From Halalkalibacterium halodurans (lineage in GTDB: Bacteria > Bacillota > Bacilli > Bacillales > Bacillaceae_D), in assembly GCF_004376175.1 (NCBI RefSeq), contig NZ_SNUY01000110.1:1-5905 (forward strand): a DNA stretch of 5,905 nucleotides, written 5' to 3'. Under the pieces are notes generated by a model that worked only from the letters and a program-made list of their open reading frames with translations, was not told where the DNA came from and made no database searches. How positions within the stretch are numbered: position 1 is the first letter of the stretch; each line of letters begins with the position of its first letter. Shown piece by piece: positions 1,009-5,905 of this stretch. The position numbers were made by a program, and so were the translations under genes.

Positions 1009-1118
1009 TTTTCATTTATTTGATGCATGGACCATTTAGCTCAATACCTTGATAGATAAGCATTATTTGGTTATCAAAGATTTTTTATGAATAATTCAGG
1101 ATGAATAATAAGTTATAC

Positions 1119-2132
1119 TTATTTTAAGCAACTTACTAAAAATATAATTATATAGTGAAATGCCTGATCCAATTCCATCATGGTAGGTTGAACGGACTCA
1201 TTTTCTGTATTAGTCATTTTTTTAACATTTTTAGCCCACCATATCAAAATAATTCTCCGATCAATAATTACATGACTCACAAAGATTATAAAAATAGCTA
1301 TCCAACTAAAATATCCTGCAAAGATGTAGCCCATTGCCGTTAAAACTAACGTATAAATAAAACTATGTGATAATAACGCCTTCCAGCTAGTTGTTTTTTT
1401 TACTGCTTGTCGATCTGTTTGAAGTAAATAATCAGCAATCTTATGTCCAATATAAAGTATAATAAATAATTTAATATTAAAATTTACACCGGGAACAAAA
1501 TTATTTATCTCTATAAAGCCAAATATTTTAGAACCAAATAAATAAGTAAACAAAAGCATTATTGTTATTAAAAAGTAAATTACAGCGGTAATTGCTGAAC
1601 TAGCACGAGCAATTTTAACATTCCTTATCAAAGAAATCTTTTGCAACTCAAGCACTAATTCTTTCTCAATAGATATGTTGTCAAGCATTGAAATTTTATC
1701 ATGGTAATCTTTGGCACTTTCCCTTATCTGAAGTTTTTTATAATTTCCATATAAATATTTACCTTTTATTTCAGGTGTTGTTTCGGCTAGAAAAAATAAA
1801 CCTTGAGCATCAAAATCTTTGGTATTAATTTGATTATTAGGATTAATTCGAGGAACCAGAGTCAAATACGACAACCATACACTTTTCAAAAAGAAAAAAA
1901 TCAAAGCTATAATAAAAATTGCAATCAGAAATTGTTCTGATTTATTCTCTAAACCAAACAAAAAATTATACCATTCATTTTTTGTTCGGATAAGAATATT
2001 CATAACTAGTGTCCAAAAAGCAATTACAACTCCTGCTTTCGTATCCGTAAAGCGAATTGTATTTTGCGTATCGTCAATAGCCTTATATAGAAATTCCAAT
2101 TTATTCTTGTCATCTTTTTTTTCATCTGACAA
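1119..2132 (-). CDS. Polytopic membrane protein, candidate effector: N-terminal Pycsar-TM-effector-like domain (3 TM) fused to a DUF3307-like 4-TM C-terminal domain
   Basis: 337-aa ORF from the track. The start is TTG (2132..2130), preceded by GAGGG (2144..2140) with a 7-nt spacer; the next in-frame Met is codon 44, inside the first TM segment. Hydrophobic segments: AGVVIAFWTLVMNILI, FLIAIFIIALIFFFL..VWLSYL, AITAVIYFLITIMLLFTYLF, IKLFIILYIG, LLSHSFIYTLVLTAMGYIFAG, FSWIAIFIIFVSHVII, FHYIIIFLVSCL. The N-terminal pattern (helix ending in RFTDTKAG, two TMs, a ~85-aa soluble loop, a third TM) matches my recollection of PF18967 (Pycsar effector domain, formerly DUF5706). The C-terminal GHKIADYLLQTDRQAVKK ... 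SH ... SHVIIDR matches the H-x3-D-[FY]-x2-Q ... K ... H-x3-D pattern I recall for DUF3307 (PF11750). No Crp-type cNMP-binding barrel or SAVED domain is recognisable. Both domain calls are from memory. Confidence 0.6.
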   Translation of the reverse strand: MSDEKKDDKNKLEFLYKAIDDTQNTIRFTDTKAGVVIAFWTLVMNILIRTKNEWYNFLFGLENKSEQFLIAIFIIALIFFFLKSVWLSYLTLVPRINPNNQINTKDFDAQGLFFLAETTPEIKGKYLYGNYKKLQIRESAKDYHDKISMLDNISIEKELVLELQKISLIRNVKIARASSAITAVIYFLITIMLLFTYLFGSKIFGFIEINNFVPGVNFNIKLFIILYIGHKIADYLLQTDRQAVKKTTSWKALLSHSFIYTLVLTAMGYIFAGYFSWIAIFIIFVSHVIIDRRIILIWWAKNVKKMTNTENESVQPTMMELDQAFHYIIIFLVSCLK

Positions 2133-2135
2133 ACG

Positions 2136-2603
2136 TTATCCCTCACAATCGATAATTTCGTAATTCATGTCCTTTATAACTTCTCCGAATTTATTAATCT
2201 TGTATATAGAAAATTTAACGTTACCATCATGAATTCCAGTAATGATAAAAATAGGAGCATGAGTACTATCGAAATAATTATTAATATTTATCATTGTAGA
2301 CTGATCTAACTTAGAAGGGATTAAGCTGTAATTTCTTGGATGGGAATGCCAAGTACCAATCAAAAATTGGTTTATTTGAAGTTTTTCTTTTACATATTCT
2401 AAAAGGCTATCGTTATCGAATTCAACTTTTGAAAAAGTTCTTTTAGCATTACGCCCTGCATCAGAAACATCTAGAACTCGTACCCATTCTGGATTCATCT
2501 TTCCAAAAATATATCCACCATTTTCAGTATCATTATATTTTACCGTGAGTTTTTCCATTTTTTTAATTACTTTTTTTGAAATATATATTTTCCTTTTTTT
2601 CAT
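2136..2603 (-). CDS. JAB/JAMM (MPN+) metalloisopeptidase, Cap3-like
   Basis: 155-aa ORF. JAMM elements are present in order: the Glu in TENGGYIFG, then GTWHSHPRNYSLIPSKLD (H-x-H ... P-S-x-x-D). Its size is typical of stand-alone prokaryotic JAB proteins. ATG 2603..2601 overlaps the upstream TGA (2602..2600) as ATGA, and an AAGGGAAAG SD-like stretch lies upstream. Confidence 0.88.
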   Translation of the reverse strand: MKKRKIYISKKVIKKMEKLTVKYNDTENGGYIFGKMNPEWVRVLDVSDAGRNAKRTFSKVEFDNDSLLEYVKEKLQINQFLIGTWHSHPRNYSLIPSKLDQSTMININNYFDSTHAPIFIITGIHDGNVKFSIYKINKFGEVIKDMNYEIIDCEG

Positions 2604-4270
2604 ATACTTTCCCTTTCACAAAAACACAAGTGACTTTTATCTAAATAACCGATTAGAGGTGTAGGAATTATATCGTCCATTCCCCAATAATAATTAACAT
2701 AGTCAAATTTAAATTTCCCATGCTTATTATAAAAGGAAAGAATTGACACAATCTGTGTTGCTAAAAAGACCATTCGTTCCATTTGTGATACCGTATGTGG
2801 GTTCCCGCAAATATCAATTTCATTCGAATCGTATTTTTCTATTTCCTTTTGTGATAATTCCTGTATTTGTTTTAAATCTTTATTTTCCTTTGCTTCATGA
2901 TAGTAGCAATTTAAGCATCCTGTAGAGGGAGTAGTTATTACTATCTCTTGTAAGATATTGTTAGCTGATGTCCACGCCCAAATAACAGGCTTTTTATAAT
3001 TTATTAATTTATTAAATGCAAAATAATCAAATTTAGCCGAATCCCCCACAGTTACAATAAGAACATCAGCTAATTCAATTACCTCGTCATCATTAGCCGT
3101 TGCAAAAATATTCTCATGCAAATAATAATTAGATAAAAGTTGTTTTAATGCAAGTGATTTATATTCACCTACATGAATTGAACCTAGTACATGCCTACCA
3201 ATATTTTCAAGAGCCATTTTATCGTAATCCGCCATTAACAAAGCTTTCACATCTTTTTCAGCTAATAATCTCGCAATTTGACTTCCTAAAGAACCTACTC
3301 CTATCATCCCTACTGTCATATCAATTCCATTAGGGCGTTCAGGGATACCTTCTATTTTAATATTAGTTACGTTAAATTCCGCATCTCGCTCAAATGATTC
3401 TCTTCCTGTAATGAAAGAAGTAACCTCTGTCTTTCCTCGATCACCTTTGTACATGATCAAAAAGATTAGGCTTTTTATATCCTTATCTATAGAACTTATA
3501 GGAAAGTTGTTCCTTAGAGTTTGAATCAATTGGTAAAGAGTTTTAAATGAAAAGCCTCTTGGAAGTCGTACAAGAAAAAGAGTCGATTTAGAATGTTTAT
3601 TTGGCAGTCGAAATTGTTTTAGAATATTAAAACCTCTATCTTCACTAAAATCAGGAAAGAAAGAATATGGTTTGTTTGAATCTATGCTTTCATATTCATA
3701 AGTTTCTCCCCTCTTTTTGGTAGAGGCCTCTTTCCCATTTTTAAATAAAAATGGTGTATGATCAACAGTCGTTTTATAAAACTTTTTAAGTTCAATACTT
3801 TCAAATTGATTTATAAATCCTTTAGGTAGATACATTACTAATTGGGTAAATTGAGGTAATATTCTCCACGATATTAAATCTTCCTCTTTCTTCCAGTCTT
3901 GGTTGACATTAGACTGTAACCAGTCTAAAATTCTTTGATAAATAAAATTACCATTGTATTCAACTTTTGCTGCCCAATTATGTAAACAACAAATATAGAA
4001 CTGTGAATTTTTGGGGTTATCAATCAATAATTCATCAATATGTCGCCAATTAGCTGGTATTACTTTATGCAAGTTACTTTCACCATTTATACTAATTAAT
4101 TTTATTGACGGCTGCTTCAAAGGATAATCTTTTATTGAAACCTCTACATTAATATAATAACCATTTTCCTCACCATTTTGAGGGATCCTACCCACACCAA
4201 TAGTTTCTTCAGAAAAGCAGAAACCGAGTTCTTGTAACTCGGCTTTTACTTCTATTAATTGACTACCCAT
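2600..4270 (-). CDS. E2-E1 fusion protein, Cap2-like (N-terminal UBC/E2-like domain, C-terminal ThiF/MoeB-type E1 adenylation domain)
   Basis: The E2-like N-terminus has DYPLKQPSIKLIS...WRHID...FYICCLHNW, i.e. YP-x3-P, a His, then a candidate catalytic Cys. The E1 domain has VGMIGVGSLGSQIARLLAEKDVKALLMADYDKMALENIGRH (Rossmann GxGxxG followed by a D-x-D...N..R nucleotide-binding block). It also has a candidate crossover-loop Cys (IDICGNP) and a CxxC...CxC cysteine set (TGCLNC ... HLCFC) like the ThiF/MoeB zinc site. The start is placed at the internal ATG 4270..4268 (MGSQLIEV...), not the track start at 4363. That ATG has GAGAAGG 6 nt upstream and overlaps the cyclase stop by only 8 nt (ATGGGTAG), whereas the 4363 start would overlap the cyclase gene by 101 nt. 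Confidence 0.85.
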   Translation of the reverse strand: MGSQLIEVKAELQELGFCFSEETIGVGRIPQNGEENGYYINVEVSIKDYPLKQPSIKLISINGESNLHKVIPANWRHIDELLIDNPKNSQFYICCLHNWAAKVEYNGNFIYQRILDWLQSNVNQDWKKEEDLISWRILPQFTQLVMYLPKGFINQFESIELKKFYKTTVDHTPFLFKNGKEASTKKRGETYEYESIDSNKPYSFFPDFSEDRGFNILKQFRLPNKHSKSTLFLVRLPRGFSFKTLYQLIQTLRNNFPISSIDKDIKSLIFLIMYKGDRGKTEVTSFITGRESFERDAEFNVTNIKIEGIPERPNGIDMTVGMIGVGSLGSQIARLLAEKDVKALLMADYDKMALENIGRHVLGSIHVGEYKSLALKQLLSNYYLHENIFATANDDEVIELADVLIVTVGDSAKFDYFAFNKLINYKKPVIWAWTSANNILQEIVITTPSTGCLNCYYHEAKENKDLKQIQELSQKEIEKYDSNEIDICGNPHTVSQMERMVFLATQIVSILSFYNKHGKFKFDYVNYYWGMDDIIPTPLIGYLDKSHLCFCERESI

Positions 4271-5351
4271 GTTGTACCTTCTCTTGTCTTGCAATATGAA
4301 TACTTGCAGCCTTGGCCATTTCAGATGCATCATAAACATTACAATATCCTGCGACTTCTTCAATTGTTATTATTTCATCCTTATATGGCTTACAATCTAA
4401 ATAATATACTTTTCTATTCTGTTTTTGCCCGAACATTTGCCTTTCATAATTAGTATAAAAACATATAGGAACTTCCTCTTTAAAATCCATTAATTCCTTA
4501 TATTTCTCTCCTAGAATTAAAATTCTTCCGTACTTTGGTGAACCTTCTATTTTTTCTTCTTTGATGTCATTATAATAACTTAACAACTTCGCAGAAAAGT
4601 CAATTTCAAATGAAGTAGCCTTTACTTCACCAACAGCTTTCTTTATACCGTTATCATTAACAATAACACCTTGAGGATTCATAAGAGTATTATTGGAGAA
4701 TTCAATTCCTACTTTTATATCAAGTAAATTGTTGGAGCTATTTGCAAACGTTTCTTGACCTTTGTCAATTAAATTTTGCCTTAATTCTTCATTTAATAAA
4801 TCTGTACTTTCAAGTATTCTTAACGCTATAAGAAAAGCCCTAGCACCAATAGTCCAATCATCTGCATCTTCTGGTTGTGTTCCACCAATTAAAATCATCA
4901 AACCATCACCCGTAATGGAGTGAATATGTGCTTGATAATATCTTGCTAACCTAATCCAAGTTGATATTGCTTTTTGCTTTAATTCAGCAATCTCCTGAAT
5001 TGTTTCAATCCCCGGTTCATCTACAAATAATGCTCTTCTAGTAAAATTTCGTAAATCAACAAAAAGTGAACACATTTTAACATCAGCTTTTTGGTTGATT
5101 TCATTATAAAAATCATTTTCCTCTCTAACATTCTCTAATAGATAATCAAAATCTATATGTCCGCCTATTTTAAAACCCTTTTCTAATTCCTGCTTTATAA
5201 TAGTTTCTATTTCTCTTTCTTGCTGCTGATCCTCTGCACTTTTAAATAAATTTTTTTGCTCATTTAATAGTACGGAGAGAGGATTTTTACTTATTTTATA
5301 GCGAGTATTATTCGATATAACTGAGCGATACATTGAACCCTTATTAACCAA
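4263..5351 (-). CDS. Class III nucleotidyl cyclase-like protein (Pycsar PycC-like / adenylate-guanylate cyclase fold) with N- and C-terminal extensions and a C-terminal Gly
   Basis: 362-aa ORF. The order of CHD elements is recognisable. MCSLFVDLRNFTRRA matches the F-x-D-[ILV]-x-[GN]-F-T first metal Asp block (D99, nt 5057..5055). HSITGDGLMILIGG gives the second metal Asp in the GD block (D149, nt 4907..4905). IKVGIEFSN matches the R/K-[IV]-G-[IV]-h-x-G block. SFEIDFSAKLLS aligns by eye to the G..VN.A.R block. GRILILGEKYKEL matches the G.I.vS...y..l block. The track start is TTG 5351..5349, with GGGGG (5363..5359) and a 7-nt spacer. An alternative ATG at 5333 (MYRS...) has a weaker AAGGG SD-like element 4 nt upstream, so the start is uncertain by 6 codons. 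The protein ends ...ARQEKVQHG-stop. Confidence 0.75.
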   Translation of the reverse strand: MVNKGSMYRSVISNNTRYKISKNPLSVLLNEQKNLFKSAEDQQQEREIETIIKQELEKGFKIGGHIDFDYLLENVREENDFYNEINQKADVKMCSLFVDLRNFTRRALFVDEPGIETIQEIAELKQKAISTWIRLARYYQAHIHSITGDGLMILIGGTQPEDADDWTIGARAFLIALRILESTDLLNEELRQNLIDKGQETFANSSNNLLDIKVGIEFSNNTLMNPQGVIVNDNGIKKAVGEVKATSFEIDFSAKLLSYYNDIKEEKIEGSPKYGRILILGEKYKELMDFKEEVPICFYTNYERQMFGQKQNRKVYYLDCKPYKDEIITIEEVAGYCNVYDASEMAKAASIHIARQEKVQHG

Positions 5352-5404
5352 TATTATTCCCCCATTCCTTTATTGTTTAGCTCCATTCTAAATTAGCAAT
5401 CATA

Positions 5405-5440
5405 TAAATAAATTGTAAGATATTTTTGTCAAATCCACAA
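5405..5440 (-). promoter_or_regulatory. Candidate sigma-A-type promoter for the operon
   Basis: Minus strand: TTGTGG (5440..5435), 17 nt, TACAAT (5417..5412). A perfect TTGACA (5432..5427) overlaps this but has only poor -10 hexamers at 16-19 nt. Either element would give a leader of about 50-60 nt to the cyclase start. Such matches are common in AT-rich DNA, so confidence is low. Confidence 0.3.
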
Positions 5441-5470
5441 GATTCATGTCCCTTAAAACCATTACCTTTG

Positions 5471-5520
5471 AACTATAAATCCATTTAACTATAAATCCTT
5501 CACAAAACTTTAACTATAGA
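5471..5520. repeat. Short direct repeat: AACTATAAATCC x2 (5471..5482, 5487..5498) plus a partial third copy AACTATAGA (5512..5520), each preceded by TT(T/G)
   Basis: Read directly from the sequence. The two exact 12-mers are 16 bp apart and the third, degenerate copy is 25 bp further on. The repeats lie about 30-90 bp upstream of the candidate operon promoter. Confidence 0.6.
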
Positions 5521-5796
5521 GAAAGAAAATATCCGTATATTTGGTACATTCGATTATCAGCTGCTCTGAATAATTAAAGTAAGGAATAACTACTGAGGAA
5601 ACAATATATTTTTACTCACAATTTAAGATTAGTTTAAAAATTAAAAAGAGGATTACTAAAATTAGAGTGCGGCATAATTACTACAATTTATTAACAAAGT
5701 TTTATACATTATTTAGTGACTAAAATGAAAAAAACGATCCAAAAAGGAAAGATTTATTAAAATTGAACCATAAAATTTGGTTCTTAGTCAAATGTT

Positions 5797-5835
5797 GGGG
5801 TGGCATAGGAGGGCGAGCCCCTCTTATCCTACCCC
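5797..5835. repeat. Imperfect palindrome GGGGTGGCATAGGAGGG-cgagc-CCCTCTTATCCTACCCC at the AT-rich/GC-richer boundary; possible terminal or subterminal structure of the right-hand IS
   Basis: 14 of 17 positions pair around a 5-nt loop (counted by hand). The palindrome overlaps the stop codon (5826..5824) of the minus-strand partial ORF and coincides with the composition shift. Confidence 0.5.
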
Positions 5836-5905
5836 GAATGTCTGATGTTTGAATTGATGATGCAAGAGAATACGGTTTCGCAAGCGATCATAACGCCGAA
5901 AACCA
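5824..5905 (-). CDS. Probable 3' end (last 26 codons plus stop) of an ISL3-family transposase gene
   Basis: Minus-strand translation from 5904 gives GFRRYDRLRNRILLHHQFKHQTFGVG-stop (TAA 5826..5824). G-F-R-x-[FY]-x-x-[FL]-R-x-R-I-L is the C-terminal motif I recall for ISL3-family transposases (...AYGFRNFxNFRxRIL...). Only 26 residues are visible, so the call is tentative. Confidence 0.4.
   Translation of the reverse strand, partial: GFRRYDRLRNRILLHHQFKHQTFGVG

Follow-up and report, generated by a model that had tools for sequence, protein, structure and literature searches.

A probable Type II Pycsar cassette in Halalkalibacterium halodurans, linking a PycC-lineage cyclase to Cap2- and Cap3-like genes and a PycTM-DUF3307 effector

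The stretch of DNA considered here, called the window below, consists of the 5,905 nucleotides (nt) at positions 1 to 5,905 of contig NZ_SNUY01000110.1 from Halalkalibacterium halodurans (assembly GCF_004376175.1). It carries a cassette of four minus-strand genes, which code for a nucleotide cyclase, a Cap2-like E2-linker-E1 protein, a Cap3-like JAB peptidase and a membrane effector (Table 1). The cassette is examined as a candidate member of the anti-phage signalling systems known as Type II Pycsar (a system of resistance to phages built on a pyrimidine cyclase).

The junctions between the genes are tight throughout. The cyclase and Cap2-like genes overlap by 8 nt, ATGGGTAG, and the Cap2 ATG lies inside the last codons of the cyclase (...CAA CATG GGT AG). 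The ATG falls within the terminal His-Gly codons (CA-ATG-G), both at window positions 4263-4270 and in all 12 loci of the genome scan described below, which means that the ...HG tail, itself conserved, and the start codon of the next gene constrain one another. The program-made open reading frame of the second gene, 2600-4363, begins at a TTG at 4363. The start that is conserved is an ATG further in, at 4270; its equivalent is the Cap2 start in all orthologs compared. Further downstream, the Cap2 and Cap3 genes share a 4-nt ATGA overlap, and a 3-nt spacer separates the cap3 stop codon from the TTG start of the effector gene, whose ribosome-binding site, GAGGGA, lies inside the 3' end of cap3. 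The TTG start of the cyclase gene is preceded by the ribosome-binding site GGGGGA. The initial annotation of this DNA had described four co-directional, translationally coupled genes at 1119-5351, and with these overlapping or closely spaced minus-strand frames the description is a fair one.

Table 1. Features of the cassette and of its boundary, in window coordinates
Feature	Position	Strand	Remarks
Cyclase gene	4263-5351	minus	362 aa
Metal-binding Asp D99 (FVDLRNFT block)	5055-5057	minus	Invariant in 20 homologs
Metal-binding Asp D149 (TGDG block)	4905-4907	minus	Invariant in 20 homologs
Disordered cyclase tail, residues 352-362 (...ARQEKVQHG)	4266..4298	minus	pLDDT <50; candidate Cap2 adenylation/conjugation site
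Cap2-like E2-linker-E1 gene	2600-4270	minus	556 aa from conserved ATG start
Candidate E2 Cys94	3989-3991	minus	ICC(L)HNW motif, invariant in 11 orthologs
E1 nucleotide loop G324-S330 (GVGSLGS)	3281-3301	minus	Invariant in 11 orthologs
Candidate E1 crossover-loop Cys488	2807-2809	minus	D-x-C-G-N-P-H, invariant in 11 orthologs
Zinc ligands C452/C455/C549/C551 of the Cap2-like protein			CxxC...CxC, invariant in 11 orthologs
Cap3-like JAB gene	2136-2603	minus	155 aa
JAMM motif, part H86-S-H88...S97-x-x-D100	2304-2348	minus	Cap3-like 155-aa protein; E27 completes the motif
Membrane effector gene	1119-2132	minus	337 aa
PycTM domain PF18967, residues 1-~205	1518..2132	minus	~3 transmembrane helices
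DUF3307 module PF11750, residues ~214-337	1119..1493	minus	~4 transmembrane helices
Upstream non-coding leader or promoter region	5352..5778	minus	427 nt, AT-rich, inside block shared with the C. hisashii N-11 locus
Terminator-like hairpin	5783-5765		At cassette boundary

The product of the first gene is identical to WP_134230467.1. Its class was assigned from PADLOC PycC profiles, from a family profile and from the predicted fold. Four of the PADLOC PycC profiles match the protein, the best at 6.7e-16. In the Protein Data Bank (PDB), a profile of 20 family members finds the cytidylate cyclase EaPycC (8jsf) at 3e-18 and the classical class III adenylyl cyclases more weakly. The AlphaFold2 model, built on the family alignment, has a mean predicted local distance difference test score (pLDDT) of 89.7 and a predicted template modelling score of 0.89. 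Its top Foldseek match in the PDB is again 8jsf (1.5e-11), followed by guanylyl and adenylyl class III cyclases, and no Pol-beta or CD-NTase entry is found among the 50 best matches listed. Scans with Pfam, PADLOC and NCBIfam gave no CD-NTase or SMODS match either, and the NCBIfam scan yielded nothing useful for this protein. Judged by its modelled fold, the first protein is a PycC-lineage, dimer-type class III cyclase and not a CD-NTase.

The active site appears to be intact. D99 and D149 align with the metal-binding D102 and D146 of EaPycC, and H142, H144, G148, K244, D251 and K255 are also invariant among homologs of ~30-100% identity. The position four residues before the second Asp, which is Lys in adenylyl cyclases and Glu in guanylyl cyclases, is Ser in this protein, that is, neither of the two. 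The specificity of EaPycC for CTP has been assigned to F100, R142 and Q144 (PMC11224242), and the corresponding residues of the present cyclase are F97, S145 and T147.

It is worth pointing out that the cyclase ends in a tail, predicted to be disordered, of the kind that a Cap2 enzyme could use. Its last residue, G362, is kept in at least 90% of 20 homologs. In some homologs 1-3 residues follow the conserved Gly (QHGN, QHGL, QHGE and QHGTTK); such extensions were seen in the proteins P0026, P0029, P0037, P0044 and P0046 and at the cyclase 3' ends of loci L004, L006, L010 and L011. In these cases trimming would be needed before adenylation, perhaps by Cap3, as in pro-ubiquitin. Among the best profile matches, Gly or Ala endings (...QHG(L), ...MYA, ...IFG, ...VFG, ...KHA, ...PLA) are seen in the short cyclases of 300-360 aa, whereas the long ones with an AGS-C domain lack them. 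Tail-less relatives with an AGS-C domain have no Cap2 or Cap3, and tail-less cyclases belong to plain two-gene Pycsar loci (L021, L025, L015 and L017). Where the gene context is readable, the presence of Cap2/Cap3 tracks the Gly/Ala tail on the cyclase.

For the second protein, Pfam gives a ThiF match at 8.6e-14, and the PADLOC E1-E2 profile matches at 3.2e-23 over residues 289-499 of the frame with the TTG start. The nearest PDB entries to its sequence profile are the Cap2 structures 7tsq, 7tsx and 7to3, over ~70 residues; with the single sequence and the profile alike, only the E1 Rossmann core was matched in the PDB. Since sequence profiles see only the E1 half, the structure was predicted by AlphaFold2 from an alignment of 27 homologs (pLDDT 89.2). 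The top Foldseek match of this model is 7to3_A, from the complex that the E. cloacae Cap2 forms with its CD-NTase (E 5.9e-20, TM-scores 0.57/0.56, 643 columns), and a second Cap2 complex, 7tqd_B, likewise aligns from end to end. Among relatives other than Cap2, those that fit compactly (UBA5, ThiF and MccB) cover ~250 columns, corresponding to the E1 domain only; BubCD is aligned over ~480 columns, but with a TM-score of 0.3 and a root-mean-square deviation of 18-19. The identity to Cap2 of CBASS (an anti-phage signalling system based on cyclic oligonucleotides) in the structural alignment is ~12%, with the profile matches limited to the E1 core.

In addition to the residues listed in Table 1, D348, N356 and H360 are invariant in the 11 Cap2-like orthologs, and C94, H77 and the E1 and zinc residues remain so once true CBASS Cap2 proteins join the alignment. 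The nearest Cap2 relative outside the family, P0120, adjoins a DncV-like nucleotidyltransferase gene and a Prok-JAB gene, from which it can be concluded that it is a genuine type II CBASS Cap2. On the strength of the model, the second gene is taken to encode a full-length Cap2-type E2-linker-E1 fusion.

The third protein matches Prok-JAB in Pfam (3.4e-7) and the JAB profile of PADLOC (1.7e-17), while its NCBIfam matches, to cap2_3 of 6A-MBL (2.2e-14) and to CBASS Cap3 (1.3e-6), are weak. The motif E-x-GG ... HxH-x9-S-xx-D is complete in 12 of 12 orthologs, and by these sequence criteria the protein is an active-looking JAB/JAMM peptidase.

The fourth protein, with ~7 hydrophobic helices in all, appears from its domain matches to be a two-module effector in which a Pycsar transmembrane domain is fused to DUF3307. 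The N-terminal half matches PycTM in PADLOC (1.8e-13); PF18967, which has the name 'Pycsar effector protein' in UniRef, is precomputed on all members of the effector family. The motifs FLYKAIDDTQNTIRFTDTKAG and ELQKxSxIRNxKxxR are common to this effector and to standalone 207-aa PycTM proteins, which occur in canonical two-gene Pycsar cassettes adjoining restriction-modification genes. The C-terminal half matches DUF3307 in Pfam (9.8e-12). This module has ten near-invariant polar residues (H230, D234, Q238, Q242, H256, H287, D291, D322, Q323 and H326; n=10), missing in just one degenerate member.

The connection between the two modules varies. DUF3307 is a separate, intact 124-aa gene adjoining PycTM in L002 (B. 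mycoides, 10855-11229) and L012 (Brevibacillus, 10837-11211), and in a distant clade it is a standalone gene with PycTM on the opposite strand (L024, 308-679). The two modules are fused in L018, and DUF3307 is absent from L019 and L022. Phage homologs of DUF3307 form phrog_2470 (1.2e-17), annotated merely as membrane protein. Neither a search of the PDB with a DUF3307 profile nor relaxed scans of Pfam yielded more than chance-level matches, and no relative of known structure or function was found; a literature search on DUF3307 returned one unrelated paper that names the family.

The four genes were found together far more often than chance would allow. A genome scan gave 12 Bacillota loci, from Caldifermentibacillus, Bacillus, Parageobacillus, Paenibacillus, Planococcus, Mesobacillus, Shouchella, Aliibacillus, Geobacillus, Brevibacillus and two metagenome-assembled genomes, and all four genes are present in every one (12/12). 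Two loci, L010 and L011, have the effector gene relocated upstream of the cyclase, with the linkage kept. The cyclase family itself is small: when 1.84 billion representative proteins were searched exhaustively with its profile, 7 representatives passed E<=1e-30 and 96 passed E<=1e-10. At ~30% identity, the linkage to a Cap2-like gene extends, by sequence matches, to three further clades, two of them with JAB and PycTM. L019 has the order cyclase-ThiF-JAB-PycTM beside a restriction-modification system, L022 has Cap2-like, JAB and PycTM genes with the cyclase, and in L018 the Cap2-like gene that follows the cyclase is cut by the contig end. L024 has cyclase, PycTM and DUF3307, and its Cap2 assignment is a motif read by eye only.

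With these results, most of what the initial annotation had read from the DNA can be upheld. The two metal-Asp blocks, FVDLRNFT and TGDG, the class III rather than Pol-beta nature of the first protein, the E2-E1 fusion (whose proposed C94/C95 cysteines are numbered in agreement with the ATG at 4270), the JAB isopeptidase and a conserved neighbourhood of cyclase and E2-E1/JAB genes (12/12 loci together with L018, L019 and L022) all stand, and so does its caution that the signalling nucleotide cannot be read from the sequence, the specificity residues being different from those of EaPycC. For the effector, about seven helices are confirmed, while the statement that it has no enzymatic motif is doubtful in view of the conserved His, Asp and Gln residues of its DUF3307 part.

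A few observations were made on the neighbourhoods of related loci. In the draft genome of Mesobacillus boroniphilus JCM 21738 (L007), the cap2-like and effector genes are frame-split (8067-9721 and 10223-11202), which could be due to sequencing error or to a decaying copy. Two TniQ-domain genes lie upstream of the Paenibacillus cassette (L004, 2365-6462), a helicase of 1462 aa that carries an MTES_1575 nuclease domain upstream of the Parageobacillus one (L003, 115-4503) and a DEAD/ResIII helicase upstream of that in L008 (3525-6107), which suggests mobile-element or defence-island settings for these three. A plasmid search gave no copy of the cyclase. The single match in a phage record, OR846597.1 (L025, 42469-54945), is to an 'UNVERIFIED_ORG' Enterococcus phage entry with a two-gene Pycsar, composed of a 426-aa PycC with an AGS-C-like C-terminus and a 164-aa PycTM and adjoining an HEC-05 defence gene; it may represent host DNA or a prophage-borne defence locus.

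Turning to the surroundings of the cassette, a block of 4678 nt (window 1101-5778) is 99.96% identical to positions 6574-11251 of the locus from C. hisashii N-11 (L001). The identity ends at window 5778, and both flanks differ between the two. Within L001, 88 nt separate the tmRNA gene ssrA (6125-6486) from the start of the cassette, which lies downstream of secG-rnr-smpB; ssrA is a classic integration hotspot for islands. The GC content of the cassette is 29.6%, compared to 40% for the L001 flanks. A decamer, TTTATGGTTC, occurs twice near the left junction in L001 and could be an att-like repeat. In the window, a decayed transposase gene of the IS1380 family, without an intact reading frame, makes up the left flank (7-1028) and abuts the 3' end of the cassette; its DNA is 76.7% identical to a Priestia megaterium plasmid copy, and its GC content of ~39-43% is above that of the cassette. 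The right flank (5779-5905) has a GC content of 48%, is unrelated to L001 and has no plasmid match. The occurrence of a near-identical cassette in at least two contexts with different flanks indicates a mobile unit. In the leader (5352..5778) no regulator gene is present, the whole window gave no match in Rfam or tRNA scans, and a promoter scan remained below shuffled expectation and gave no usable promoter.

The combination of genes in the window has been described before. The accessible passages of Ye, Gong, Chambers & Corbett 2024 (bioRxiv 10.1101/2024.11.21.623953) use the name 'Type II Pycsar' and refer to van den Berg et al. 2024 Cell Host Microbe. Those of Chakravarti et al. 2026 (bioRxiv 10.64898/2026.08.12.744502) describe, as 'Pycsar-like-4', a subclade of cyclases whose defining feature is its E2, E1 and JAB neighbours, and they suggest a ligation-based regulation and a possible ATP preference. 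As far as these passages go, a Pycsar-lineage cyclase stands next to E2/E1 and JAB and the authors propose conjugation of the signalling enzyme. The window has the exact gene set, with a clean E2-E1 fusion, a separate active-looking JAB and no regulator gene, and it shows both the cyclase-E2-E1-JAB linkage and the disordered, Gly/Ala-ended cyclase tail. The initial annotation had taken the architecture to be undescribed, and had itself named a catalogued subtype as evidence to the contrary; with Type II Pycsar and Pycsar-like-4 on record in these passages, novelty cannot be claimed. Its central proposal, that a Cap2/Cap3 module is coupled to a class III cyclase instead of a CD-NTase, is on the other hand supported by the fold, by the Cap2 match and by the linkage.

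The nearest relatives of the cassette share different parts of it. With canonical Pycsar (EaPycC, PDB 8JSF) it has in common the cyclase fold, the metal Asp residues, a homologous N-terminal effector domain and related loci in defence islands, and the PycC-type class III cyclase, the intact Asp pair and the cognate PycTM effector in the operon are Pycsar features. The canonical two-gene system, which is said to go back to Tal et al. 2021, reportedly consists of PycC with PycTM or PycTIR, and the products of Pycsar are cyclic pyrimidine mononucleotides (cCMP or cUMP). Compared to it, the window adds Cap2, Cap3, the Gly tail of the cyclase and DUF3307, lacks the AGS-C domain, and has base-specificity residues unlike those of cCMP- or cUMP-forming PycC.

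With type II CBASS, of which the E. cloacae CdnD02-Cap2 (PDB 7TO3) and V. cholerae DncV operons are examples, it shares the full-length Cap2 architecture, the E2 Cys, the E1 crossover-loop Cys, the zinc site, the Cap3 JAMM motif, a disordered Gly/Ala tail on the enzyme and the order enzyme-Cap2-Cap3. In the window, however, a class III cyclase takes the place of the CBASS enzyme and PycTM that of a CBASS effector, and with no CD-NTase the cassette lacks what defines type II CBASS. In NCBIfam, the E1 part (1.6e-11) and the JAB protein (2.2e-14) are both matched best by the cap2_3 model of 6A-MBL (NF058523), a system which reportedly, in work ascribed to van den Berg et al. 2024, combines a fused Cap2_3 with a metallo-beta-lactamase (MBL)-fold protein. 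Membership of 6A-MBL was nevertheless ruled out, as the scores are 43-53 bits, far under the cut-off of 320 bits, Cap2 and Cap3 are separate, and the window has no MBL-fold gene. Finally, the accessible passages on Thoeris operons report Cap2/Cap3 recruited to Gly-tailed TIR proteins (bioRxiv 10.64898/2025.12.03.692087). There too the module serves an enzyme other than a CD-NTase, with the C-terminal Gly tail as the sole common feature, but that signalling enzyme is a TIR protein and not a cyclase.

Taken together, it is likely that the cassette is a horizontally acquired anti-phage signalling system and belongs with those for which the name Type II Pycsar already exists. A mechanism can be proposed by analogy with type II CBASS, where, according to the accessible parts of two reports, Cap2 adenylates the CD-NTase C-terminus, ligates it to targets and primes signalling, and Cap3 reverses this (Ledvina 2023 preprint; Jenson 2023). 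In the present case, Cap2 would adenylate the C-terminal Gly362 of the cyclase, which would then be carried by the E1 and subsequently the E2 cysteine and be ligated to a target. This conjugation would prime the cyclase or raise its activity, and Cap3 would take it apart again; where a homolog continues beyond the Gly, Cap3 may first trim a pro-form. Upon infection, the primed cyclase would make a 3',5'-cyclic nucleoside monophosphate (cNMP), which would activate PycTM-DUF3307, with the result that the membrane would be compromised and the infection aborted.

Other explanations have to be weighed against this one. That the cassette is an ordinary type II CBASS, with a very divergent Pol-beta CD-NTase as its first gene, might be thought of since Cap2- and Cap3-like genes follow that gene exactly as in type II CBASS, the E1-E2 and JAB profiles of PADLOC are CBASS-derived, and PF00211 of Pfam does not match the first protein. 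However, none of the three databases (Pfam, PADLOC and NCBIfam) returned a CD-NTase or SMODS match, and the family profile leads to 8jsf. The 50 best structural matches listed comprise nothing but class III cyclases, and the effector has a PycTM domain. A cryptic CD-NTase is refuted at the level of the fold, and we give this explanation practically no chance. The failure of the Pfam cyclase model could also be read differently, namely that the cyclase is dead and serves as a ubiquitin-like tag, which Cap2 would ligate to phage or host targets in a Bil-like manner; the conjugation-type tail is in line with this. The invariance of the metal Asp and the other conserved residues over the whole range of homologs is what one expects of an active site, however, and the cyclase always has a cNMP-responsive PycTM effector linked to it. 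The reading as an inactive tag was therefore rejected, its probability being very low indeed.

Another thought is that the genes are neighbours by chance, such that a two-gene Pycsar was interrupted by an E2-E1/JAB module with some other substrate. Defence genes do cluster and shuffle, and Cap2/Cap3-like pairs have several partners, in CBASS, 6A-MBL and Thoeris. Yet the four genes are linked in all 12 loci; in L018, L019 and L022 (in L024 by eye only) the cyclase is followed by a Cap2-like gene despite changes in gene order; the start and stop codons overlap; neither a ubiquitin-like nor an MBL gene that could be the alternative substrate was found among the open reading frames of the window or with Pfam; and the module is present with Gly/Ala-tailed cyclases and absent with tail-less ones. 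On the conserved linkage, the overlapping codons and the tail correlation, chance adjacency was rejected as highly improbable. A non-immune role is unlikely as well, but deserves somewhat more attention. Here the conjugation-controlled cyclase would belong to a housekeeping or stress cNMP pathway, with the membrane protein as channel or sensor. It can be argued for this that there is no phage test of the cassette, that in L001 it sits among secG, rnr, smpB, ssrA and a two-component system, and that DUF3307, which is uncharacterised, is found in phages too, as a 'moron' membrane protein. Against it speak the low GC content of the cassette and its near-identical occurrence in two unrelated contexts, at the ssrA hotspot and beside the insertion sequence relic, the rarity and patchiness of the family, the restriction-modification, TniQ or helicase-nuclease genes beside related loci, and the homology of each component to parts of validated defence systems.

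The assignment to Type II Pycsar itself must be set against several points that weigh in the opposite direction. PF00211 gives noise only for the cyclase, and the E2 domain, undetected by sequence profiles, is deduced from the AlphaFold2 model and the conserved Cys. The residues F97/S145/T147 leave the pyrimidine product, the defining trait of Pycsar, unsupported, and in the accessible passages of Chakravarti et al. 2026 ATP is predicted for the E2-linked cyclase subclade, from AlphaFold 3 ligand scores only. The proposed mechanism offers no route from C-terminal conjugation to activation of a dimeric class III cyclase. In L001 the cassette is flanked directly by housekeeping genes and not by other defence genes. 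Finally, no phage assay, conjugation assay or nucleotide measurement for the family was found in the literature, and a search, with key papers beyond its reach, found no experimental work on a Cap2/Cap3-linked cyclase.

The DUF3307 module and the post-Gly extensions are the only potentially new details of the cassette. DUF3307 is unmentioned in the accessible passages of Ye et al. 2024 and Chakravarti et al. 2026, and neither a role for it nor the trimming of pro-forms appears in the literature passages searched. We tentatively put forward a joint reading, on balance doubtful, in which DUF3307 is functionally required in many Type II Pycsar systems and the cyclases with post-Gly residues are pro-forms that need Cap3 trimming. 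DUF3307 would then be a four-helix membrane module, with the His/Asp/Gln cluster possibly a metal or ligand site, and, whether fused to PycTM, beside it or on the opposite strand, it would alter effector killing or signal sensing.

Proteins of this family are currently annotated as 'hypothetical', 'ThiF family' or 'DUF3307', and such annotations make it likely that defence-system finders will overlook these loci or divide them. The window adds a currently unannotated example of a named, little-studied system. As Type II Pycsar has been named yet not dissected in the literature passages searched, this four-gene cassette of thermophilic Bacillaceae is a practical system in which to study what conjugation does to a dimeric cyclase, which nucleotide is made and what DUF3307 contributes to PycTM. 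In more general terms, the Cap2/Cap3 module is portable among unrelated signal-making enzymes, namely Pol-beta CD-NTases, TIR proteins and class III cyclases, and the sole common requirement for its partners appears to be a disordered tail that ends in Gly or Ala.

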